Of a stretch of DNA of 43,385 nucleotides, positions 10,086 through 43,385 are shown one piece after another. This DNA comes from a virus. Made by a program: the position numbers and the translations under genes. The notes under the pieces were generated by a model. That model saw nothing but the letters and a program-made list of their open reading frames with translations. It had not been told where the DNA came from and ran no database searches. The DNA lies in IMG/VR virus record IMGVR_UViG_3300045988_116410, positions 1 to 43,385 of that record. One strand, given 5' to 3'. The stretch's first letter is position 1. Every line of letters starts with the position of its first letter.

Positions 10086-10192
10086 TTGTGGCTTGAGGGG
10101 GCGCCCCGCGTGGGGCGGGTGCCAGGGTGGCCACACGGGCCGTCCCCTTTGTTTTTCCTGGCATACCACTGTGGCACTTTTGGAGGTTTGTA

Positions 10193-10525
10193 ATGACTGC
10201 GATTGATTTTGAACACCTTGACCTGGATGCTCTGCGCGCCGAGGCGAACAACAAGTACAAGAACCTGACGGTTCGCGGCGTGGTGTTCCGTGGCCTGATG
10301 CGAGTGAGCAAGGATGAGCGTGAGCGTTTCGATGAGCTGGCGGCTGCTCGCCGGGCGGGCGAGTCTCAGGCGGATGTGACGGAGTTTTACCGTGACGTGC
10401 TGATGCTGGTCGCGGAGGATAAGGCTGCGGCTGAGGCACTGCTTGATGACATTGGTGAGGATGCGGCTGTGCTGGACACGCTTGTGTCGCTCTACTTTGA
10501 GCGCACGCAGGTGGGGGAAGCCTAG
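10193..10525 (+). CDS. tail assembly chaperone (short form, G-like)
   Basis: ATG 10193 follows GGAGG. Acidic 110-aa protein immediately upstream of the tape measure. Confidence 0.75.
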   Translation: MTAIDFEHLDLDALRAEANNKYKNLTVRGVVFRGLMRVSKDERERFDELAAARRAGESQADVTEFYRDVLMLVAEDKAAAEALLDDIGEDAAVLDTLVSLYFERTQVGEA

Positions 10526-10908
10526 CCGTCGCGGGCTTGCTGGATAAAGCGGGGACGGGGATTTACGCGGATTTTCGACTCTACTACGGGATTGACCTGG
10601 TGGAGGCGGTAGAGAGTGGTTCCCCGTCCCCGCGTTTTTTGCTTGCTCTGGTGCGCGGCTTGCCGGATGGTTGTTGGACGCAGGCGTTGTTGGCGGAGAT
10701 GCCTGAGTTGCGTGGGTGGACGCGGGAGATGTCGTTGATGGCGGACGTGTTTGACAACATTTCGGTGAATACGGTGGCGACTGGTTTTGGGAAGTCGCGG
10801 CGTCCGTATTTGTGGCCGGGCCGTCCTGGGGTGAAGCAAACGTTTGCGGCGGAGAAGTGCACCGTGAAGGGCGTGAGGCAGATGTTCGTGGACCTCGTTT
10901 CGGGGTGA
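10193..10908 (+). CDS. tail assembly chaperone long form (G-T-like) via putative -1 frameshift at 10513-10519
   Basis: The -1 frame is open from the GGGGGAA run (10513-10519) through ORF 10537..10908. This is the classic position between major tail and tape measure genes. Confidence 0.6.
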
Positions 10909-10968
10909 CCGGATGGTCTGCCTCGCCCTCCTCGCGGGGCCTGTTTTGTGTGAGGGGGGTTGATGTGA

Positions 10969-13900
10969 TTGGGCGCAGAGGCCGGTAATGTTGTAGCGCG
11001 CCTTGCCGTGAAAGTGACGCCGGATACGAAGGATTTCTGGGGTGACTTGTCGCGGCGCTTGGACGCGATTGAGAAGCGTTTGCAGCCGCTTGAGGTTGGC
11101 GTCGAGCTAGACGAAAACGCGTTGCGTGAGCGCGTGCGGGTGATGTCTGAGCGGGCGCAGGCGGCGGTGAAGGATGTCCAGATGGGCATCCATTTTGATG
11201 AGCGCGAGTTCGCGAAGATCGGCACGATGGCTGATCGCCTTGATGACGCGGCTGAGCGGCACGCTGGCGTGTTGTCGAAGGTGTACGACGGTGACATGGA
11301 TACGATCAGGCGGCACTGGTCGTCGGCGTTGGATGCGATGAAGCGTGACGCGGCTAAGCGGTTGAAGTTTAAGGGTCCCCGTCCTGACGAGGATTCGTAT
11401 TGGCGTGGGCATACCGAGTCGGCGTTCCGCATGTGGTACGGGCGTCGCGGTGAGGAGATGCGCAGGGCGTTCCGCGCGTTGGGTCCGGTCGAGTTTGAGT
11501 TGCGGCCTGACGACCAGTGGCAGGAGCGCGCGCGCGGCGTGCTGGACGGGTTTTTCTCGAAGGCGTACACGGGCCGGGTCAAGTGGCGTGTTGACGAGGA
11601 CTTGAACGACGTCGGCGCGTTGCGCAGGCTGCGGTCTCGCATGGAGCGCGAGTTCGCTCACGGGTGGAAGTACGTAGTTGACCCTGACGTCGATGTGAAG
11701 TCTGGCCGCGTGGATGCGGCGTTGAACAAGTTGCGTCATGAGATGCGTGAGCGGGCTTTCGGTAAGCATGACGCTTTCCATCTGGATATTAAGCCGAACA
11801 TGAGTGACCATGAGCTGCGCGAGGTTGGCAGGAAGCTGAAGCACTTCAAGCGCAAGTGGGATGACACTGAGTTGGAGTTCAAGCTCGGGTTGGATCACTC
11901 GTCCCGCTATGTGGCGGCGGCCAGGTTGGCGATGTTGGCTCGTGACAGGTGGGTGAAGCTGCGCCCGGTGATCGACCACAAGGCGATGGTTGTTGCGCGG
12001 GAGACGTTGGCCGCGATGTCGGGTTGGCGTTTGGCGAAGGACTTGACGCAGAACGTTTGGGACCTCGTCAAGAATCTGGACAAGATGGTGCCGGTGATTG
12101 GCGCTGTGGGTGCCGGGTTCGCGGTGGCCGGTTCTGGCGTGACTCAGTTGTTGAAGCATACGTTCACGCTTGGCGGCGCGGTTGGTCACGTGTTGCAGGC
12201 TGCGGCGTTGTTGGGTCCGACTCTGGCGATTTCTGCTGGGTTTATCGGCTATACGGCGGTGCAGGCGGCGAAGGTTGCGACGGAGATTGTGCCCGGCCTT
12301 GAGGACGCTTTCCACAAGATGAATGACGCGGCTCAGCATGGGTTCTGGGATGCGGTGTCGGACGATCAGCTCGCGAAGATTACGGACTCGTTCTTCCCTG
12401 AGATGGAGGCCGGGTTTGCCAGGTTGTCGAAGGCGATGGGCGGGCATTTCGGCAAGCTGATTGACTCGTTTGACCGGGTGCTTAAGCCTCATATTGCGGA
12501 GATGTTTGACCATTCAGCCGCGGGCGTTGAAAAGCTGGGTGAGCACACTGATTCGCTGATGACGATTCTTGGCGTGCTGGGCAAGCATGGGTCCAAGACG
12601 ATGGAGCGGTTCTTGGGGTGGCTTGGTGAGGCGACGGACAAGTACGCGGATTGGCTGGTGAAGGCCGAGTCGTCGGGCCGGTTGCAGGAGATTATCGACC
12701 GGGGCATTGACACGTTGAAGGATTTCGGTCGCGCCGTGTGGAGTGCGGGCGGCATCTTGCACGGGTTCTACCGGGCGGCTGAGGCTGAGGGCGGGGCGAC
12801 GATGAAGCGTTTCGCTGATGGGCTTGAGGCCGTAAATAACGTTGTGAATAGTGCGAAGTTCCAGACTGGCTTGAAGCGCGTGTTCTGGGGCATGAATCAG
12901 GCGTGGTCGGCGTTTAAGGATGAGACGCGGGGCGTGTGGGGCGAGTTCGCTACGTCGTGGTCGAAGTTGGCCGCTGAGGCTGGCGACGCGATGGGCCGCG
13001 TGGGCGGGAAGCTCGCGAAGGGCTTGTTGACGGCGTTTAGTGGCAAGGACTTCAACAAGGGGTTCCACAACCTGTTCGACGGGTTGGCGGATGGCTTGTC
13101 GCGTATTGCGGGTGTGTGGCCGAAGGTGTCGCGCGGCTTGGGGTCTCTGATGTCGTTCATGGGGTCGCTCGGCAGGGGCTTGTCGCCTGTGGTTGGCGCG
13201 GCTTTGGAGGCGTTGGCTCACGCGGCGGAGCGTTTGGGGCCGGCTTTGTCGAGGGCTGTGGAGAAGGGTGGCCCGGCGTTGGGTCGCGCTATCGAGTCGT
13301 GGGGCCGGGTTGCGACGCCGGTCGCTGAGGCGTTGGCTAAGCTGCTGGACACGCTGGTTCGCATTCCTGGCGCTGTCGAGGCGGTGGCGACGGGGTTCCT
13401 GGCTTTCCGTGGCTTGTCGTCTGCGGCGTCCCTGGTGAAGGCCCTGTCTGGCGCGGTGTCTGGCTTGAAGGGCGACTTGCTGTCGGCTAAGGACGCGTTG
13501 ACGCGGTTTGCGGCTGCTCGCGCGGGCGCGGCGGCGCTTGAGGGCGGCGCGGCTGCTGGCGAGGCGGCGGCTGTAGCGGCTGGCGCTGGTGTTGCTGGCA
13601 AGGTTGGCCGGTTTAGTGGCGTGGCGTCGAAGGCGGCGAGCGCGATGGGTAAGGTCGCTCAGGGCGCGGCTGGCGTGGTGTCGTTCTTGACTGGCCCGTG
13701 GGGGTTGGCGATTGCGGGCGCTGGCTTGGCGTTGGGTGGCCTGATTTCATGGTCTAACCGGGCGACGGACGCGTTGAGTAATGATCTTGCTAACGCGTTT
13801 ACGAAGGTCGCGGAGGGCGCTGATGGGGCGTCGGCTAAGGTGTCGGCTCTGATGGGCCAGGTTGTGGCGAAGGCTGATCCGAGTGGGAAGCACGCCAAGA

Positions 13901-30538: not shown

Positions 30539-31708
30539 TTACTGCCCGTTTTCCTGTTTGCCGTGATTGAACAGGTCAACAGGGCCGTCCGGCATTGCAC
30601 CGTCTAACTTCACGTAGTAGGCGATGGTGGTTTGCACGTTCGAGTGTGCGAGCCATGTTGCCGCCGCCCTTGCCCCGTAAGTGTCAAATACGATGCTGCC
30701 TACGGATTTGCGGATGCCGTGGATTGACAGGTCTGGCAGGTTGAGCTTGTTGAGGAGCAGTCGGCACTCTCGGTACATGGTTGCTTGCGCACGGTCGAAC
30801 AGGCGAGTATCCGGGGTTAGGTGCCGGGCTTTCTTGACCCTGGCGCACAGCCTGTCGGCCTGCCATTCGGGCAGGGCCTTGTCCGGGTACATACGGCGGG
30901 TCTTGCGGGACTCAACGCCGCGCACAGTCCCCGTATCGAGGTCGATGTTGCCCCAGGTGAGAGAGAACAGCTCCCCCGCGCGCAGGCCGAGGTGGGTTTG
31001 GAGGATCAGGGCGTCCACTGCGTCCTGTTCTGGGATGCGTTTTGCGTCGTACTGTTCGAGCGTTGTTATGAGGGCGCGCATTTCGGTGGGCGTGAGGATG
31101 CGGTCGCTGTCTAGTCTTACACGTACGGGGCTTGTGATGGGTGATTCTGTGGGCCGTGTGGACTGGAATGAGGAGAGGTTGACGGCGTCGGATGCGAGCT
31201 TGAGGGCGACGCCTAGCGCGGCTCGCAGGCTTGTTCTAGCGCGCCCGCTCCCGTGCTTGGCGACGTATCCGTCGTAGAGTGTGGTGAGTGCTGACACAGT
31301 GATGGCCTCGTCGAGGGGGAGGTGCCACCAGTGTGGGTTTTCTCGTTGACTGTCGGCTATGGCAGTCTCATAGTTGTGCCTGGTGCCCTCCGCGAGGGCT
31401 TGGTGTCGGCGTGAGCGCACGTACGCGTCCCAGACTTCCGTGGGGGTACTTTGTGGGGTGATGACGCCTGACGCGCGTTTAGCGTCGTCAATGTATTGTT
31501 TGGCTTGTTCCTCGCATTGTCGGATGGCTTGGCGTTTGCTGGTTGCGATGGTGCGGATGCGTTTGGGGGTGTCGCCTCGTTGTCCAATGAGGACGCTTGC
31601 CCTCCAGTGGGTGCCGTCCTGGTTGACGACCCACGCGCGGCCTTGTTTGGACACCTTGACAGTGGTGATGTTGCCTAGTTCGCCTGGTTGGAGTGCGCGT
31701 CGCGCCAT
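30539..31708 (-). CDS. int: tyrosine integrase
   Basis: Box I GLRAGELFSLTW, box II HGIRKSVGS, and WLAHSNVQTTIAYYVK (His...Tyr). ATG 31708 follows AGGAAGGG. The track ORF extends to 31948. Confidence 0.9.
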   Translation of the reverse strand: MARRALQPGELGNITTVKVSKQGRAWVVNQDGTHWRASVLIGQRGDTPKRIRTIATSKRQAIRQCEEQAKQYIDDAKRASGVITPQSTPTEVWDAYVRSRRHQALAEGTRHNYETAIADSQRENPHWWHLPLDEAITVSALTTLYDGYVAKHGSGRARTSLRAALGVALKLASDAVNLSSFQSTRPTESPITSPVRVRLDSDRILTPTEMRALITTLEQYDAKRIPEQDAVDALILQTHLGLRAGELFSLTWGNIDLDTGTVRGVESRKTRRMYPDKALPEWQADRLCARVKKARHLTPDTRLFDRAQATMYRECRLLLNKLNLPDLSIHGIRKSVGSIVFDTYGARAAATWLAHSNVQTTIAYYVKLDGAMPDGPVDLFNHGKQENGQ

Positions 31709-31757: not shown

Positions 31758-31780
31758 CGTGTTGCCTGTTTTTCGGGTAT

Positions 31781-31873
31781 AAAAAATGCGGCCCCCTCGT
31801 AAGGGAGAACCGTTACTCTCGCCACCCCCGTGTGGGGCGGGTTGAGTGCCGGTCTCCCTTGTGAGAGGGCCGC
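31781..31873 (-). terminator. large hairpin plus U-run separating the upstream operon from int
   Basis: Minus strand: GCGGCCCTCTC ... GAGGGGGCCGC followed by ATTTTTTAT, with internal sub-hairpins. Confidence 0.4.
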
Positions 31874-31884
31874 ATAGGGGCGGG

Positions 31885-32232
31885 CTAGAAACAGCCCGCA
31901 TACTTGAAAGTGACGTGGTTCGCCGCGTCTTGGATGAGGGTGCCCCACAGCAAGCCATGGGTGTATCCCCGGTCGATGTCGCTCACCCAGTCCCCCGCGC
32001 AGTCGTCTGCGAGTCGGTAGTAGCGGGATCCGTCTGACGCTTCAATGACTGTGCCTTCCGGGCAGTCAAGGTCGTCCGCGCACTGCAGCTCCCACCAGCA
32101 GTCGAGGCGGGTGATGGACTCAAGGCGCAGGACAGGCTTGGGCTTGAGCATGTCCTGTAGGGTTTCCAGCCGGGCCTTGATTTCGTTGCACGTGGCGATA
32201 GCCTCAGCGATAGCTGTGTTGGTTTCTGTCAT
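31885..32232 (-). CDS. paralog family member A (helical N-term plus GTVI..Y.R..W domain)
   Basis: 115 aa. CPEGTVIEASDGSRYYRLADDCAGDWVSD...VTFKYAG. Confidence 0.65.
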   Translation of the reverse strand: MTETNTAIAEAIATCNEIKARLETLQDMLKPKPVLRLESITRLDCWWELQCADDLDCPEGTVIEASDGSRYYRLADDCAGDWVSDIDRGYTHGLLWGTLIQDAANHVTFKYAGCF

Positions 32233-32244
32233 GTTTCCTCCTAT

Positions 32245-32604
32245 TCAGTTGCCCTTGTGGATGATCTCGCATTTGTCTGCATCTTCAAGCGTGTAGCGGA
32301 ACACTTTGTCGTGCGAGTATTTGCATCCAAGGAAGTTGGTCCATGGGCCATTCGAGTAGCTTGTCCGCATGTACTCGCCGCCCCCAATGCTGATTACGGT
32401 CCCGAGGGGCAGGCGCTCAAGGTCGGCGGGGGTTGTGAACATGTGGCCCCCGCCGTCGCTTGTGGACGCTCTGATTGGTTCCGTGTTGCTGTTGAGGATA
32501 CGTCTGGTTTCCGTTTCGAGTTGTTCGACCAGGTTGTGCGCCTCGCATAGCGCGTCGTAAGCGTTGTTCCAGAGGTTGAGCGTTTCGATTAGAGTTTTTT
32601 GCAT
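32245..32604 (-). CDS. paralog family member B
   Basis: ATG 32604 after GGAAGGA. LPLGTVISIGGGEYMRTSYSNGPWTN...CEIIHKG. Confidence 0.65.
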   Translation of the reverse strand: MQKTLIETLNLWNNAYDALCEAHNLVEQLETETRRILNSNTEPIRASTSDGGGHMFTTPADLERLPLGTVISIGGGEYMRTSYSNGPWTNFLGCKYSHDKVFRYTLEDADKCEIIHKGN

Positions 32605-32626
32605 GCTTACTGTCCTTCCCGAGTGT

Positions 32627-32893
32627 TTATGCTGCGCCGACGTGGAGGAGGCTAATCGGCCAACCGCCGCGTTTTCGCGCGACGAGGGTCCGCCAAAAGT
32701 CATCGTCAGAGAGCGTTAGCCCTGACACGCCTGTCCATCCCCTGTGTCCGGCGAGGCGCATGTATTCCCATCCGTTCGTGAGGATGATCGTGCCGGGCAT
32801 GAGGCTGGCAAGATGGTCAGGGCCGTTCAGGTGCGTGATGCGGTGACTGGCCGTGCAGTCGTAGTGAGTGTCGAGCTGGATTGGTTCTGTCAT
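32627..32893 (-). CDS. paralog family member C
   Basis: ATGA overlap with the upstream gene. LMPGTIILTNGWEYMRLAGHRGWTG...ISLLHVG. Confidence 0.65.
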   Translation of the reverse strand: MTEPIQLDTHYDCTASHRITHLNGPDHLASLMPGTIILTNGWEYMRLAGHRGWTGVSGLTLSDDDFWRTLVARKRGGWPISLLHVGAA

Positions 32894-33261
32894 AGCGGGT
32901 CCAGTCCGTACGACAGGAGGGTGATCATCTCGCCAGAGATTGTTGCGCCGAGGATTTCGGCAAACATGTCCTCCCCGGATAGCTGGCGTCCGTCGTGTCG
33001 CATCCATCGTTGCACGCGGGCTGCGGATGACTGAACGAACACGGCTCCACCGTTCCTACCGCGCTCGGAGATGTGGATTGACGTGCCAGGCGGGAGGAGC
33101 CACAGGCTGCGTTCCCCGGTGATTGGCTCGCCTAGTCCGGGTATGGTGATGTTGATTGTGCCCGCTGGGGGGTTTGCTGCGTCGTGCAGGGCTTCCTTTG
33201 CCTCGCCAATGCGGGTGAGGATTTTTTCGCACGCGGTTGCTTGTGGGATGCCTTTGTTCAT
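32890..33261 (-). CDS. paralog family member D (divergent)
   Basis: ATG 33261 after GGGGAG. LLPPGTSIHISERG...VQRWMRHDG...ITLLSYG. Confidence 0.55.
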   Translation of the reverse strand: MNKGIPQATACEKILTRIGEAKEALHDAANPPAGTINITIPGLGEPITGERSLWLLPPGTSIHISERGRNGGAVFVQSSAARVQRWMRHDGRQLSGEDMFAEILGATISGEMITLLSYGLDPL

Positions 33262-33274
33262 GCGGCTCCCCTTG

Positions 33275-33613
33275 TTACGCGCTGGGCTGGTAAACGATGC
33301 GGAACTGTTCGCCGTCTGCCGCGCGCTCGCGCAGGTGGCCGTACAGTTCTCCGCAACCGTAGTCGTCCGACTCGGTAATGTTACGGATGGACGACACCCA
33401 GTAAGTGTCTCCGTGCGGGACTCGCAGGTATACGTGGTCCTTGTTTCCGGCGATGACAGTCCCAACCGGGAAGTCGTAGTCGGCCCATTCATGCACTCTG
33501 AGAGGTGCCCTTCCGGGCAGATTCTGGATGATGAGCGGCCCGCCGCGCTTGAGGGTTTCGATGCTGGTTTTGAGCGTGCTGATTCGCGTCTGGTAGGTTT
33601 CGATGCTTGCCAT
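33275..33613 (-). CDS. paralog family member E
   Basis: DFPVGTVIAGNKDHVYLRVPHGDTYWVSS...FRIVYQP. Confidence 0.65.
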   Translation of the reverse strand: MASIETYQTRISTLKTSIETLKRGGPLIIQNLPGRAPLRVHEWADYDFPVGTVIAGNKDHVYLRVPHGDTYWVSSIRNITESDDYGCGELYGHLRERAADGEQFRIVYQPSA

Positions 33614-33634
33614 GAATGTTTGTTTCCTTCCCTT

Positions 33635-33964
33635 TTAGAGGCCCGCGTGGCAGTAGCTCAGGTTGCTCTGTGTCCTGGCCGCAATGAGGTAAAGCTGCTC
33701 GCTTGTTTCGGCCCTGCCGCCCCTACAGCCTTGCCAAAGTCGGTATTCGTCCACGCCCATACTGAGTGCCATCCATTCGTGCACGCCAATGGCGATGACT
33801 GATCCCGTGGCGACAATCCCTAGCTGTCGCGGCTCGGTGATGATCAGGTCGTCGAGGCCGCGCAGGCCCTTGAATGTGAGCTTGCCGTGGTCGGGGTCGT
33901 TGAGTAGTTCGTTGAGGAGCTTTTGGGCCTCGTCGATTGCATTCACGTAGTTGTCGTCAGTCAT
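33635..33964 (-). CDS. paralog family member F
   Basis: VATGSVIAIGVHEWMALSMGVDEYRLWQG...LSYCHAG. Confidence 0.6.
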   Translation of the reverse strand: MTDDNYVNAIDEAQKLLNELLNDPDHGKLTFKGLRGLDDLIITEPRQLGIVATGSVIAIGVHEWMALSMGVDEYRLWQGCRGGRAETSEQLYLIAARTQSNLSYCHAGL

Positions 33965-33984
33965 TGTTTTGTCTCGCTTTCAAG

Positions 33985-34248
33985 TTAGTACGATGTCCGG
34001 TAGGTGTTGTGGACGACGTAGCTAGAGTGCGTGTTTTTCATGAGGAGTTTCCGCATTTCCTCGTTCGTACACCAGTTCCCCATTGAGTCAATCCACCCCT
34101 CGGGGACGCGCATGTGCTCCATGTCGTCCATGATGACGACTGTCCCGTAAGCGACAGAGAGTGGCGTGTCGCTGGTGAAGATGATGGGGTGGCAGACGTT
34201 CGGCGGGTCGGCGTCGATTGTGTACGCGCGCGGGCGTGTCGTGTTCAC
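33985..34248 (-). CDS. paralog family member G
   Basis: GTG 34248 after GGAAGGA. VAYGTVVIMDDMEHMRVPEGWIDSMGNW...SYVVHNTY. Confidence 0.6.
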   Translation of the reverse strand: MNTTRPRAYTIDADPPNVCHPIIFTSDTPLSVAYGTVVIMDDMEHMRVPEGWIDSMGNWCTNEEMRKLLMKNTHSSYVVHNTYRTSY

Positions 34249-34269
34249 TACTATGTTCCTTCCGATAGG

Positions 34270-34320
34270 TTAGGGGCGCGCCCAGGATGCCCTCGGTAAG
34301 GGTCCTAGACGCGCCCCTAA
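34270..34320. repeat. 11-bp perfect inverted repeat TTAGGGGCGCG / CGCGCCCCTAA with a 29-nt structured loop
   Basis: Read directly. Intergenic, between genes 34348.. and ..34248. No U-run follows on the minus strand. Confidence 0.6.
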
Positions 34321-34347
34321 CGCCCGAACGGTGGGCTATGCGTATGC

Positions 34348-34668
34348 TCAGTCGGACTGGCCGCTGGTAGCGCCCGCGTGGGATTCCTCAAGGATTTCTT
34401 GCAGGGCTTCCGCCCCCACCTTGTAAACCCCGGCCTTCACCACGCCCACCGTGTGCTCGCGCAAGCGCTCAACCGGCTTGCCGTTGGCGATAGCCTCGTC
34501 CAGGAGGGCGAGGGTTTCCGGGTGCTTGCACTTGATTTCCCACGTGTCATTCATGACGTCGCGAACCATTGTGGTGCCCATCTGCTTGTTGTTGACGATG
34601 AATGTGTGCTCGCCTTCCATGATGGCTTCCAGCGCCGCTCCGAGGGTCGTGGTGTCCTGGCTGTTCAC
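34348..34668 (-). CDS. hypothetical protein
   Basis: GTG 34668 in a GTGA overlap with the upstream stop. ATG 34683 is an alternative start. Confidence 0.55.
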   Translation of the reverse strand: MNSQDTTTLGAALEAIMEGEHTFIVNNKQMGTTMVRDVMNDTWEIKCKHPETLALLDEAIANGKPVERLREHTVGVVKAGVYKVGAEALQEILEESHAGATSGQSD

Positions 34669-34880
34669 GCGATTTCCTTCCACTCGCGGGAACCCTCGCG
34701 ATGCACGATGACTCCGCCGTCGTCCGTGTTTCCGATGAGGTCTCCGATGTTGACCGCGTTGTCCCGGTGTCCGAAAATGATTCGGGGCACGACGCCTCCG
34801 GGGGTGACCTGGTTGACGACGTCGCCACGGTGCTTGTTTGCCAGGAGGATGATGTTGTTTGCGGTGACGCGTTCGATCAC
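34665..34880 (-). CDS. hypothetical protein
   Basis: GTG 34880 in a GTGA overlap with the upstream stop. The track ORF extends to 34946. Confidence 0.5.
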   Translation of the reverse strand: MIERVTANNIILLANKHRGDVVNQVTPGGVVPRIIFGHRDNAVNIGDLIGNTDDGGVIVHREGSREWKEIA

Positions 34881-35077
34881 AGTCCCACCCCCGTGATGTG
34901 GGTGAATGTGAGCCATGCGCCGGGGTAGCCGATCAGCGCCCAACATGCGATGTTGAACAGGTTACCGAGCCACCCTTCCGCATCGTCGGCCCATTCGATG
35001 ATTTCCATGAAGATTTTGGCGGTCGTCAGTCCTGCGATGAAGATTGCGACGCCGATTCCCAGTAGCATCCATGCCAT
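34877..35077 (-). CDS. small two-TM membrane protein
   Basis: 66 aa, MAWMLLGIGVAIFIAGL...ACWALIGYPGAWL. RBS GGAAGGA. Confidence 0.6.
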   Translation of the reverse strand: MAWMLLGIGVAIFIAGLTTAKIFMEIIEWADDAEGWLGNLFNIACWALIGYPGAWLTFTHITGVGL

Positions 35078-35156
35078 GCGTGTTGTTTCCTTCCGGTTGA
35101 ACTAATCTGTGTGTGGTGTGCGCTGGTTCCGCCAGAAACCGTGCGCAATGTGTGGG

Positions 35157-35483
35157 CTATTCGCCCATGTGAATGAGGTTGAAGTCCGTCTGCTGCAGGT
35201 CGGCGTCCCACCCGAGGTCTACCTGGGTTGCGACGTCCGCGTCCGTGTAGCGCCCGTCAGGTGCCCGCGTGGTTACCCAATGGTCGGTGTAGGCCTTGAA
35301 AAACTCTCCCGTCACATAACTGTCAATGAGTGTGCCGGGCGGGAGGGCGGACAGGTCCACCTGTGCAACGATGCCCGCGCAGTTGATGCGAACTGCGTTC
35401 GGCGGTGTTGCGGGCGCGTTCGCCTGCGCACATAGTCGGTTGATGAAGTCCATGGCCTCATCGAGGGTGATTGGCTGCGTCAT
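35157..35483 (-). CDS. paralog family member H
   Basis: ALPPGTLIDSYVTGEFFKAYTDHWVTT...FNLIHMG. Confidence 0.6.
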   Translation of the reverse strand: MTQPITLDEAMDFINRLCAQANAPATPPNAVRINCAGIVAQVDLSALPPGTLIDSYVTGEFFKAYTDHWVTTRAPDGRYTDADVATQVDLGWDADLQQTDFNLIHMGE

Positions 35484-35495
35484 TACGCCCCCCGG

Positions 35496-35852
35496 TCAGC
35501 CTGCGTGAACGATACGGGGAGGCGTGGCGCAGCCGCGCATCTCCGCAGCGAACTCCTCGTGACTGTATGACTGTCCGCTGTACCTGACCCACGGGCCAGC
35601 CTCGCCATCCGGGAGGCAGCGGAAGTACTCGAACACCCCGTCTGCCACCAGCGTGCCGACGCTCACGCCCTTGGCGTCCAGCTCCACCATATCGCCGTTA
35701 AGGTCGGTCGCCTTGAAGCGGGTGCCGGTCAGTTCCGGCTCGCTCGTCGGTTCCTCGTCCGTGACGTCGGCTCCGAGGGTTTCCATGATCTTGTTTGCGA
35801 ACTGTTCGATAATGTCGTTGAGCTGTTCGCGGGTGAGTGATGCAGTTCCCAT
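35496..35852 (-). CDS. paralog family member I
   Basis: ATG 35852. VSVGTLVADGVFEYFRCLPDGEAGPWVRY...PRIVHAG. The track ORF extends to 35978. Confidence 0.6.
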   Translation of the reverse strand: MGTASLTREQLNDIIEQFANKIMETLGADVTDEEPTSEPELTGTRFKATDLNGDMVELDAKGVSVGTLVADGVFEYFRCLPDGEAGPWVRYSGQSYSHEEFAAEMRGCATPPRIVHAG

Positions 35853-35938: not shown

Positions 35939-36023
35939 GAGTGCTACACTCAACCCTGTTACAACAAGGCACTGACACGCCCCCCTTGGTTTGTCTGTTT
36001 TCTCTGTTGAACGTTCTGTGTAG

Positions 36024-36147
36024 GGGAAGCCCGCACTGGACAGGCTAATTGCAAGCGCATCTGACAGGGTCGCCCCGCCAGGCGGACTGTTGGACGGTCT
36101 CTCACACTCGCCGCAAAGCGCTTAGGTCAGTCCGGGGCGGGCTTCCC
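36024..36147. repeat. long-range 11-bp inverted repeat GGGAAGCCCGC / GCGGGCTTCCC enclosing about 100 nt with further nested pairing
   Basis: Arms at 36024-36034 and 36137-36147. Inner pairs CTGGAC/GTCCGG and AAGCGC/GCGCTT. Starts 4 nt after the stop of the HTH gene. Confidence 0.5.
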
Positions 36148-36150
36148 TGT

Positions 36151-36558
36151 CTATGCTGTGGCGCGTCGGTTTGCGGCCATCCAGTCCGTGAGCGCATCGT
36201 GCGGGTAACGGACCACGCTCCCAACCTTCACAAACTCCGGCCCATCCCCAGTGAAACGCCACTCCCCTAGCGTGCGAGCGGACACGCCAAGCATGGACGC
36301 GACGTCGGCGGGCGTGTGCATGAGCCGGGGTTTTTCCGCGGCTTCCGCCCACGTGAGGAACATGTTGGCGGCCTCTGCGAGCTGGTCGCCCTGCGAGGCT
36401 TTGACGTTGACGATGCTCCCGTTTGGGGCGGGGGCTCTCCCGCCGATGTTGACTTGTGCGCCTGTGCGGCGGGCCTCGTCGATCACTGCGGCGAGGATCA
36501 GATTCGCGGCGGCGGGGTCGGTCGTGTGTGCGGTGACTGTGTAGGACTCCTGTGTCAT
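36151..36558 (-). CDS. excisionase-family HTH DNA-binding protein (Xis or early regulator)
   Basis: C-terminal TPADVASMLGVSARTLGEWRFTGDGPEFVKVGSVVRYPHDALTDWM. ATG 36558 chosen. A possible leaderless start lies at 36618. Confidence 0.65.
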   Translation of the reverse strand: MTQESYTVTAHTTDPAAANLILAAVIDEARRTGAQVNIGGRAPAPNGSIVNVKASQGDQLAEAANMFLTWAEAAEKPRLMHTPADVASMLGVSARTLGEWRFTGDGPEFVKVGSVVRYPHDALTDWMAANRRATA

Positions 36559-36615
36559 GTTGGTACTGCCTTCGTTGACGTTCGTGTGGCGTTGCCGGTA
36601 AGGGTTGTCCGACAA

Positions 36616-38774: not shown

Positions 38775-38825
38775 CTCCCAGGGCGGGACTCGAACCCGCC
38801 ATTACCTCACCACTCAAGCCTGGGA
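38775..38825 (-). ncRNA. tRNA-like element TLE-1 (acceptor stem, D-like hairpin, T-arm; no anticodon arm)
   Basis: Minus strand: UCCCAGG CUU-GAGUGGU-GAG GUAAUG GCGGG-UUCGAGU-CCCGC CCUGGGA G. 7/7 acceptor pairs. The T-arm is identical to that of the phage tRNA-Leu. Confidence 0.7.
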
Positions 38826-39247: not shown

Positions 39248-39300
39248 TTCCCTGGCCCGGACTCGAACCGGCACAACGCTCACCATTCAAGCGCCAAGGA
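39248..39300 (-). ncRNA. tRNA-like element TLE-2
   Basis: UCCUUGG CGCUU-GAAUGGU-GAGCG UUGU GCCGG-UUCGAGU-CCGGG CCAGGGA A. The acceptor has 7 pairs (one G-U). The T-stem has 4 bp plus a G.G mismatch. Confidence 0.6.
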
Positions 39301-40038: not shown

Positions 40039-40094
40039 CTCCCTGTGCCCGGATCGAACAGGCCCTATCTCACCCCCACCATTGGGGACAGGGA
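40039..40094 (-). ncRNA. tRNA-like element TLE-3
   Basis: UCCCUGU CCCC-AAUGGU-GGGG GUGAGAUAGG GCCUG-UUCGAUC-CGGGC ACAGGGA G. 7/7 acceptor pairs. The T-stem has one G-U pair. Confidence 0.65.
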
Positions 40095-40469: not shown

Positions 40470-40530
40470 CCCCTTGCCCAGGATTCGAACCCAGGACCCC
40501 CGCACGGGGGCGCAACCGACTTGCCAAGGG
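40470..40530 (-). ncRNA. tRNA-like element TLE-4 (has an extra 5-bp/tetraloop hairpin in place of an anticodon arm)
   Basis: CCCUUGG CAA-GUCGG-UUGC G CCCCC-GUGC-GGGGG UC CUGGG-UUCGAAU-CCUGG GCAAGGG G. 6 of 7 acceptor pairs. The T-stem has two G-U pairs. Confidence 0.55.
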
Positions 40531-40935: not shown

Positions 40936-40986
40936 CTCCTCGGGCGGGACCCGAACCCGCCTAAAACTCACCAATCAAGCCGAGGA
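40936..40986 (-). ncRNA. tRNA-like element TLE-5
   Basis: UCCUCGG CUU-GAUUGGU-GAG UUUUAG GCGGG-UUCGGGU-CCCGC CCGAGGA G. 7/7 acceptor pairs. Confidence 0.7.
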
Positions 40987-41294: not shown

Positions 41295-41344
41295 CGCGCG
41301 GGACGGGAATTGAACCCGCCATTACCTCACCACTAAGCCCGCGC
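41295..41344 (-). ncRNA. tRNA-like element TLE-6
   Basis: GCGCGGG CUU-AGUGGU-GAG GUAAUG GCGGG-UUCAAUU-CCCGU CCCGCGC G. 7/7 acceptor pairs. Shares 23 identical nt with TLE-1 but has a completely different acceptor stem. Confidence 0.7.
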
Positions 41345-41964: not shown

Positions 41965-42040
41965 TAGACGGTGCGAGAATCGAACCCGCCGCCCGCGCCA
42001 CGTCTGCTAAACGCCCGCGCGAACGCTCACCAAAGCCGCC
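41965..42040 (-). ncRNA. degenerate tRNA-like element TLE-7
   Basis: Good T-arm GCGGG-UUCGAUU-CUCGC (41973-41989). Only 5 acceptor pairs (AGACG/CGUCU). The CUU-UGGU-GAG module is displaced about 20 nt to the 5' side. Contains a 9-nt direct repeat GCGCGGGCG. Confidence 0.3.
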
Positions 42041-43208: not shown

Positions 43209-43298
43209 CTTAAGTCTTAAGCTAATGTTTAAAGCTCTCTATCTCAAGTCCTCTAGTTCACGACTTATGGTTTATAGCTCATGGTTTCTATCTTATAG

Positions 43299-43385
43299 TT
43301 CTGTCGTTGCTTTAAGTCTTAAGACGTAATTAGTATTGATTCTAATTCTGTCGTTGCTTTAAGTCTTAAGACGTAATTAGTATTG
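43299..43385. repeat. tandem repeat, period 47 bp: two 40-nt units (43299-43338, 43346-43385), each containing the palindrome GTCTTAAGAC
   Basis: Unit TTCTGTCGTTGCTTTAAGTCTTAAGACGTAATTAGTATTG occurs twice. A partial third copy (TGTCGTTGC) lies at 62-70 across the junction. The related CTTAAGTCTTAAG lies at 43209-43221. Confidence 0.85.

Follow-up and report, generated by a model that had tools for sequence, protein, structure and literature searches.

Introduction

The internal-protein (IP) locus of T4 and the host-takeover module of SPO1 are clusters of small, fast-evolving genes that are dispensable and are believed to target the host as infection begins. The IP genes of T4 have one conserved module, a short N-terminal capsid-targeting peptide, and their number varies between relatives. 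In some temperate actinophages, variable genes near the integrase and the repressor protect the lysogen. Polyvalent proteins are giant proteins of phages and plasmids that fuse unrelated effector domains (Iyer et al. 2017, PMC5512222); it has been proposed that they enter together with the DNA and that zincin-like peptidases process them, and they contain many uncharacterised LPD domains that are also found solo (PMC5512222). Here we describe nine small genes, named g1 to g9, on the minus strand of IMG/VR virus record IMGVR_UViG_3300045988_116410 (positions 31885 to 35852; the whole stretch analysed, 43,385 nucleotides long, is called the window), and we relate the domain that their products share to tandem repeats of giant phage proteins.

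As in polyvalent proteins, the domain of the window family is uncharacterised and lies inside giant phage proteins that combine unrelated enzymatic domains (ADP-ribosyltransferase, NUDIX, zincin-like), one of these giants being encoded between portal and prohead protease genes; as with LPD domains, it also occurs as solo small phage proteins. Unlike the LPD domains of polyvalent proteins, it is repeated in tandem many times within a giant protein, and, unlike polyvalent proteins, the nine-gene array sits in the integrase arm, outside the virion module. The likeness of the giant proteins to polyvalent proteins comes from their enzyme parts and from the locations of two of them, one in a head module and one next to an InPase gene. 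Neither the LPD entries nor any other family in Pfam matched the nine proteins, their 111 relatives or the repeats of the giant proteins, and the family appears to behave as an LPD-type domain with solo versions, outside the catalogued families. Compared with the T4 IP genes, the conserved part is here a C-terminal domain of 80 amino acids (aa), with no relation in sequence or fold, and packaging of the nine window proteins is not indicated. A literature search on the PHROG identifier discussed below and on tandem paralogue arrays in actinophages returned nothing relevant. The nine-gene format of this uncatalogued domain family is unusual, and what is new here is its link to polyvalent-type giant proteins.

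Results

Sequence profiles link nine small genes as diverged paralogues

The initial annotation of this DNA had described nine minus-strand open reading frames (ORFs) of 87-123 aa as diverged paralogues that share a C-terminal motif, in a domain that it did not recognise. All nine ORFs are present, with the starts it had assigned to them: g1 (31885..32232, 115 aa), g2 (32245..32604, 119 aa), g3 (32627..32893, 88 aa), g4 (32890..33261, 123 aa), g5 (33275..33613, 112 aa), g6 (33635..33964, 109 aa), g7 (33985..34248, 87 aa, with a GTG start), g8 (35157..35483, 108 aa) and g9, the first gene of the array (35496..35852, 118 aa). A Shine-Dalgarno-like sequence precedes most of them, AGGAGG in the case of g1. 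Their products are all acidic, with isoelectric points (pI) between 4.2 and 6.6 (4.4 for g1, 4.2 for g8, 4.35 for g9) and net charges from -1 to -12.

Pairwise BLASTP among the nine proteins gives weak matches, and profile tests were therefore used to assess homology. In leave-one-out runs, a hidden Markov model (HMM) made from eight members was searched against the 459 ORFs of 50 aa or longer that a six-frame translation of the window gives, and in nine of nine runs the left-out gene was the top non-training ORF. The expectation value (E) was lowest for g2, the central member (1.3e-11), followed by g3 (1.7e-7), g1 (2.3e-6), g9 (1.9e-5), g5 (5.5e-5), g7 (7.8e-5), g4 (1.2e-3) and g8 (1.8e-3), and was highest for g6 (1e-2), which was still the top non-training match; for unrelated window ORFs the best E was 0.055 or higher. 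Profile-profile comparison with hhalign, using alignments of the orthologue groups, placed g2 at the hub of the network, with probabilities of 94-97% to six other members, namely g1 (96%), g3, g5 (94%), g6 (97%), g7 (96%) and g9 (97%); g5 reached 94% to g1 also. The weaker member g4 was linked at best to g1 (77%), then to g6 (74%) and g2 (57%), and the weakest, g8, reached at best 57%, to g9. As controls, 15 other small proteins of the same arm stayed at or below 2.2%. The paralogy proposed initially is thus borne out by both tests, the similarity between profiles being significant. On this profile evidence the nine genes are homologous, seven of them linked firmly and g4 and g8 moderately.

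A C-terminal domain with a confidently predicted alpha/beta fold

The shared motif is as the initial annotation described it: G and W are invariant in the nine proteins, and among the 111 relatives the conservation of G, T and W is 90% or higher. The core of the domain consists of (D/E)L..LP.GT(V/I)I, aromatic-x-(R/K), W, G..Y(T/S)..(E/D)(L/F) and a final strand. The residues that never vary in it are G, T, W and hydrophobics, and a catalytic-type constellation common to all members is absent. Across the family and the giant-protein repeats described below, no enzyme-typical polar residue set is conserved, and the C-terminal His of the small proteins is missing from those repeats.

The fold of g2 was predicted by AlphaFold2 from the family alignment of 111 sequences, with a predicted local distance difference test score (pLDDT) of 93.5 and a predicted template modelling score (pTM) of 0.78. 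In this model residues 2-38 form a helix. The alpha/beta domain that comes next begins with two strands (44-48 and 53-56), a short helix (59-63) and a hairpin (70-80); short strands then surround the invariant W, and the domain closes with a helix (98-107) and one last strand (112-116). The AlphaFold2 model of g3, which has no N-terminal helix, shows the same domain as g2 (pLDDT 83.7). The predicted architecture of the family is a paralogue-specific amphipathic N-terminal helix, lacking in g3 and g7, and an alpha/beta domain of about 75-80 aa.

The structural check suggested by the initial annotation, AlphaFold with Foldseek, thus gave a confident fold, and no significant neighbour was found in the PDB for the g2 and g3 models (best E 0.42 and 0.43). 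Among the non-significant top PDB matches, nearly all were ubiquitin-like, PB1 or RBD beta-grasp structures with template modelling (TM) scores of 0.3-0.5. The order of elements, a hairpin, a short helix, further strands, a helix and a final strand, recalls the beta-grasp of ubiquitin-like, PB1 and DIX domains, a resemblance rather than membership given these TM scores, E of 0.4 or more and no sequence similarity. A sequence-profile search of the PDB gave noise only (E of at least 0.17). In BFVD, the matches at E below 1e-3 were solely uncharacterised proteins of metagenomic "Siphoviridae sp." genomes, several per genome; in addition, phages of Rhodococcus, Arthrobacter and Corynebacterium have uncharacterised proteins with partial matches that are short.

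Profile comparisons relate the domain to tandem repeats of giant phage proteins

An exhaustive HMMER search of the family profile against 1.84 billion cluster representatives (50% identity) at E of at most 1e-3 gave 92 matching representatives. About 75 of the 92 are small proteins of 76-153 aa with the same architecture, a few of them with two domains. Another 16 are longer than 300 aa: one of 314 aa has two copies of the domain, and 15, of 650-3405 aa, have three to nine matched stretches, all of them to the C-terminal module. Giant phage proteins (900-3400 aa) carry the domain as about 4 to more than 10 tandem repeats, and their E in this whole-library search goes down to 1.6e-13.

Since the single stretches match weakly, the link was tested in reverse. 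A jackhmmer search started from one repeat of the giant protein P0260 and run on 14 giant proteins collected 158 repeats, and the resulting HMM contained no window sequence. With this repeat-only HMM, the top six of the 459 window ORFs were g2, g8, g1, g5, g3 and g9 (E 1.8e-5 to 0.019), the next ORF being at E 1.1; the second-best match was g8 (E 5.8e-4). Comparison of the family alignment with the repeat alignment by hhalign gave a probability of 95.6% and E 1.3e-8, and the consensus of the giant-protein repeats, DLDALPVGTVITSTDGTTYTKTGDGKWTSSDGTTYTDSDF, reads like that of the window family, DLEDLPPGTVIADGGAEYFRVAEGRGGPWVSYSGRKYTHEEL. Homology between the window family and the giant-protein repeats is supported by these profile comparisons.

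Besides the repeats, the giant proteins collectively have ADP-ribosyltransferase, NUDIX, zincin-like or kinase-like parts: P0290 combines an ADP-ribosyltransferase (ADPrib_exo_Tox, E 1.4e-15) with a NUDIX domain, and P0268 has a NUDIX domain. Genomic context was examined for three giant proteins, P0251, P0260 and P0281. P0251 (L012 10001-20218) has an HExxH motif, and its gene lies three genes downstream of Portal_Mu and three upstream of a Mu-like prohead protease gene. P0260 (L013 8001-16187) follows a gene with InPase and PolyA_pol domains, and a part of it (residues 239-455) is similar to "minor capsid and ADP-ribosyltransferase fusion" proteins from prophages of Mycobacteroides. We also observed that these three proteins (1110-3405 aa) consist largely of 75-80-aa repeats and that almost nothing in them matches Pfam. 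The GC content of the contigs with giant proteins ranges from 46 to 68%, and the domain is therefore spread over phages of different hosts.

The initial annotation had not recognised the domain, and comparison with databases agrees with it, as none of the nine proteins has a credible match in Pfam, PHROGs, NCBIfam or PADLOC. The only match of the PADLOC defence models was DruK to g1, at a noise-level E of 0.033, and Pfam searched with all 111 relatives gave scattered noise only. As for anti-defence proteins (Acr, Ocr/ArdA-type mimics, nucleotide sponges), the sequence and fold comparisons with the PDB revealed no characterised inhibitor. Two PHROGs of small phage proteins, phrog_2021 and phrog_4024 (123-129 positions), match the giant repeats (P0251 at E 2.7e-15 and 3.7e-15, P0281 at 3.6e-12), and phrog_2021 is the only PHROG matched by more than one of the 111 relatives, with three members at E of at most 0.1 and a best E of 0.002. 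None of the nine window proteins matched phrog_2021 or phrog_4024 at E of at most 1. Neither PHROG has an assigned function, so that this link adds no mechanism. By these searches the domain is undescribed and in no curated family, and none of the well-known families matches the nine proteins.

The family is old, phage-borne and fast-evolving

Two homologue searches in a collection of 5.8 billion proteins listed 240 proteins, all of them orthologues of eight of the nine paralogues at 52-100% identity, mostly on metagenomic contigs of about 45 kb; one relative contig is self-labelled as human oral metagenome. Among the matches listed, 23 are orthologues of g1 (58-90% identity), 48 of g4 and 61 of g9; a protein identical to g6 is found on 15 metagenomic contigs, and g3 representatives have 39-68% identity. 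A third search, with a domain-only alignment that included the giant repeats, returned known orthologues only and zero annotated relatives. No cultured phage was matched by tblastn when the queries were the family consensus, the consensus of the giant repeats and the two-domain protein P0303. As far as seen, these searches indicate that the family is confined to phage-like contexts.

Copy number was counted by running the family HMM on fetched contigs. All nine genes are present in L006-L010, and the more distant IMG/VR relatives have 8 (L002-L004), 12 (L005) or about 13 members (L001). L017, an unrelated phage contig, has at least five tandem members flanked by an HTH_17-like gene (a faint HTH_17 match) and an integrase gene. 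Orthologues of individual paralogues recur in related contigs, and the duplications are thus old and the paralogues individually retained. The nine genes are shown by this to be an old tandem expansion of a single phage protein family.

Between the window and L007, g6, g7 and a 111-aa insert gene are 100% identical, with identities of 58% for g1, 64% for g4, 75% for g9, 79% for g8 and 63% for the integrase, which indicates that alleles are mosaic and probably exchanged between related phages. The initial annotation had suggested diversifying selection. Gene-wide pairwise ratios of nonsynonymous to synonymous substitution (dN/dS, Nei-Gojobori) between orthologues of the family are 0.2-0.8, with a single value of 1.6 that comes from few substitutions, and are 0.05-0.2 for the integrase, the helix-turn-helix (HTH) gene and a 167-aa neighbour. 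The suggestion is thus supported in part: the rate is 2-5 times that of the neighbours, alleles are mosaic and the copy number is 8 to about 13, but with ratios of 0.2-0.8 purifying selection dominates. The N-terminus had been described as the variable part, which is correct between paralogues; among orthologues, however, it is the better conserved part (dN 0.12 and omega 0.42 for the helix, dN 0.24 and omega 0.51 for the domain). The slower helix therefore marks each paralogue while the surface of the domain drifts.

Long antisense ORFs cross the array, such as one of 243 aa at 33071-33802 on the plus strand. In L007 and L010, antisense genes of 352 aa (10163-11221, minus strand) and 212 aa (11412-12050, minus strand) have been called. 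We considered that a cassette had replaced g5-g1 in these two contigs and rejected it, the 352- and 212-aa calls being antisense artefacts and all nine genes being present. As antisense ORFs are annotated instead of g5-g1 in two public contigs, public annotations partly miss the family.

The array is split and flanked by conserved elements

The window is an actinophage-like genome of 43.4 kb with about 60% GC, and its source is a temperate phage of human oral metagenomes. Judged from the sample labels, the 60% GC content and the terminase relatives, its host may be an oral actinobacterium. Identity of the large terminase to its counterparts in cultured Streptomyces, Gordonia and Mycobacterium phages does not exceed 50%, and a megablast search among 50,697 phage records gave no near match to the DNA of the array. 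The rightward genes (structural, lysis, replication) extend to about 30.3 kb, and a leftward arm of about 30 small genes runs from the right end down to a tyrosine integrase, with the array directly downstream of about 16 of these small genes on the same strand.

According to the initial annotation the array was tandem, had several translationally coupled members and lay next to the integrase, and each of these statements holds in part. All nine genes are co-oriented on the minus strand, but they are not contiguous, since the array is split into g1-g7 (31885-34248) and g8-g9 (35157-35852) by an interruption at 34249-35156 that contains three unrelated genes, also on the minus strand (34348..35077). 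These encode about 106-111 aa (34348-34683), 71 aa (34665-34880) and a hydrophobic protein of 66 aa (34877-35077); hhalign to the family gives at most 1.1% and the family HMM zero matches, so that they are not members, and they are kept in related contigs. Coupling applies to one pair, g4/g3, in which the start of g3 overlaps the stop of g4 by 4 nucleotides (nt; ATGA); no other family pair overlaps, and the spacing of the other members is 12-22 nt. The integrase gene (30539..31708, minus strand; Pfam Phage_integrase, E 9.4e-10) is indeed adjacent, with a gene of 389-390 aa called at this place in relatives, but a strong terminator stands between it and the array.

This predicted intrinsic terminator (31779..31875, minus strand) lies after the stop of g1 and ahead of the integrase start. 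It consists of a hairpin about 90 nt long and a UUUUUU run behind it, and folds at -79.8 kcal/mol (z -6.1), with none of 200 shuffles folding as well; it was found by a terminator scan also, and the region is 79-89% conserved in relatives. Between the terminator and the integrase start, a TACAAT-containing stretch can be read from the sequence. At the other end of the array, an HTH_17 (excisionase/MerR-like) gene (36151..36558, minus strand; Pfam HTH_17, E 6e-8) is followed directly after its stop, upstream of g9, by an ultraconserved non-coding block of about 200 nt (35958..36150, minus strand). The nucleotide identity of the block is 88-95% in L002-L010 and 82% in L001, the most distant contig, and in the same relatives g9 has just 60-84% amino-acid identity, so that the block is far more conserved than the flanking genes. 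Indels of 1-2 nt within it argue against coding. There is no match in Rfam, and a structure was not established for the block: the single-sequence fold has z -1.6, and RNAalifold gives a multi-stem fold whose pairs are nearly all invariant, with no covariation because the sequences are nearly invariant. It is a candidate promoter/operator, leader RNA, replication element or other cis element. Bounded by a conserved block upstream and by a strong terminator on the integrase side, the array has the appearance of a separate transcription unit, read from g9 to g1.

In codon position 3 of the coding strand, the array has a GC skew of -0.29 and an AT skew of +0.32 and the integrase gene -0.40 and +0.55, and both signs are reversed in all other gene sets, with +0.43 and -0.86 for the structural genes and +0.17 and -0.39 for the minus-arm genes of 36-43 kb. 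The cumulative (G+T)-(C+A) value has its maximum at 36608, compared with a switch of gene orientation at 30.4 kb, and the upstream block is about 500 nt from this maximum. These values suggest a replication-linked skew that switches near 36.6 kb, or a separate history (inversion or transfer) of the block formed by the integrase gene and the array.

The gaps that separate early genes in the leftward arm contain elements of about 50 nt that resemble transfer RNAs (tRNAs); all of them are on the strand that is transcribed, and none is within the array. There are six or seven of them, on the minus strand at 38776-38825, 39249-39300, 40040-40094, 40471-40529, 40937-40986, 41296-41344 and possibly 41966-42016. 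Each has a 7-bp acceptor-like stem, the conserved segment CTTRRTGGTGAG and a T-arm (5 bp and a TTCGAnT loop), without an anticodon arm. Neither ARAGORN nor Rfam identifies them as tRNAs. Three strict matches were found in the window by a regular-expression scan, against 0.04 expected, and in homologous copies of L001-L010 and L017 both stems are preserved by many compensatory changes, for example TCCCAGG/CCTGGGA, GCGCGGG/CCCGCGC and TCCCTGA/TCAGGGA. They might be RNase P/Z-type processing signals that punctuate an early polycistronic messenger RNA, or decayed tRNA genes. A complete tRNA-Leu(CAA) gene is present elsewhere in the window, at 1633-1718 on the plus strand, immediately upstream of the large terminase ORF. 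At the right end (43293-43385), two tandem AT-rich direct repeats of 46 nt, TTATAGTTCTGTCGTTGCTTTAAGTCTTAAGACGTAATTAGTATTG, are 96% identical and may be a genome terminus, a packaging signal or an early promoter region.

Discussion

The domain described here is probably a host-interaction module, as judged from its repeats inside giant phage proteins with toxin-like enzyme domains. The initial annotation had suggested host-takeover, anti-defence or exclusion functions, and this suggestion gets indirect support from the repeats, since the giant proteins with ADP-ribosyltransferase and NUDIX domains are reminiscent of polyvalent early-phase effectors. More specifically, we tentatively propose, as a reading that falls somewhat short of an even chance, that its copies are acidic, non-enzymatic binding modules and that the nine paralogues bind different host, defence or competitor targets during infection. 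The domain would act as a binding or adaptor module without catalysis, and the nine paralogues would be differently surfaced versions of it, each with a different host, defence or competitor target early in infection. The N-terminal helix would set the identity of a paralogue or its oligomeric state, and the gene array would be the unlinked counterpart of the repeat arrays in giant proteins. A wider version of this proposal is speculative, and we consider it unlikely as a whole: the "LPxGTVI...W" module would be a phage-exclusive binding domain in two interchangeable formats, an array of solo genes and tandem domains in giant polyvalent proteins, some of which would perhaps travel inside the capsid and be cleaved into units once injected, and both formats would give varied binders that neutralise host defence or takeover targets and are renewed by allele shuffling between phages.

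Several observations weigh against the proposed role. Single giant-protein repeats score weakly against the family (0-20 bits), and the link comes from summed scores and profiles. P0281 (L014 4468-7800), which is 1110 aa long and made almost entirely of repeats, is encoded among genes like those of single-stranded-DNA-binding protein (SSB) and helicase, that is, among early or replication genes, so that the giant proteins are not all found in virion modules, and the giant-protein repeats could be structural spacers rather than binders. P0329, a borderline match in the library (E 9e-4), is an Ig-like Big_7 repeat protein, and given this case some low-level matches may be motif-driven. Positive selection was not demonstrated, dN/dS being below 1 nearly everywhere, and a prophage was not found in two scans of genome contigs with g2 and the large terminase as queries. 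As to P0329, we treat it as motif-level noise because the models of the window family are alpha/beta and no family member matches Big_7; an Ig-like Big_7/PKD identity of the domain was considered and rejected, the models being alpha/beta with two helices.

A rival explanation is that the members of the array are lysogenic-conversion genes, expressed by the prophage and shielding the lysogen by superinfection exclusion or by defence against other phages. An accessory, mosaic and copy-number-variable array would suit it, and so would the appearance of a separate transcription unit that has a conserved element upstream and ends in a terminator of its own; its best points are the adjacency to the integrase gene and the reversed codon-position-3 skew that the array and the integrase gene share, which fits a common module or expression class. 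However, features of membrane proteins, nucleases, toxins or sensors are missing from the proteins, PADLOC has no credible match to them, and the array continues, on the same strand, directly from about 16 small genes of the leftward arm. The best counterpoint is the occurrence of the domain in giant phage proteins, one of them in a head module and several with effector-type enzyme domains, which suggests that it is the infecting phage that acts, and we find lysogenic conversion unlikely. Somewhat less probable again is a housekeeping role in phage replication, regulation or assembly, with the giant repeats as inert spacers. The domain has no catalytic signature, the near-pure-repeat P0281 lies among SSB and helicase-like genes, and dN/dS is below 1, all in keeping with such a role; yet 8 to about 13 variable, mosaic copies that evolve 2-5 times faster than their neighbours would be unusual for housekeeping, the acidity of the proteins makes DNA binding unlikely, and the family is absent from cultured phages at the sensitivity of tblastn.

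It is also conceivable, if decidedly doubtful, that the nine proteins form one hetero-oligomeric complex through their N-terminal helices, with a single scaffold or platform role, as a non-covalent equivalent of the giant repeats. Seven of the nine have an amphipathic, heptad-like N-terminal helix that is better conserved than the domain within orthologue groups, six related contigs keep all nine paralogues together, and giant proteins string many copies of the domain together. Two members, g3 and g7, have no helix, though, and a copy number of 8 to about 13 and alleles that are exchanged independently between phages are hard to square with a co-adapted obligate complex. Chance similarity among spurious ORFs can be set aside as having a negligible probability. 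High-GC DNA does yield long antisense ORFs, as seen in the 243-aa ORF of the window and in the 352- and 212-aa calls in L007 and L010, but the leave-one-out and profile tests with their controls, hundreds of orthologues with dN/dS below 1 and a model with pLDDT 93.5 refute an artefact.

If the role proposed here as host-interaction modules is wrong, the nine genes are an ordinary gene family. The array is a compact and clearly bounded test bed: its nine genes encode about 100 aa each, the models are confident and natural alleles are plentiful, in phages of the oral Actinobacteria type, which are poorly studied. If it is right, these modules would be a sizeable uncatalogued class of phage host-interaction modules, with 92 clusters at 50% identity, and a single module would be usable both as a multigene array and as a poly-domain giant, which would bear on how polyvalent proteins are assembled from solo genes.

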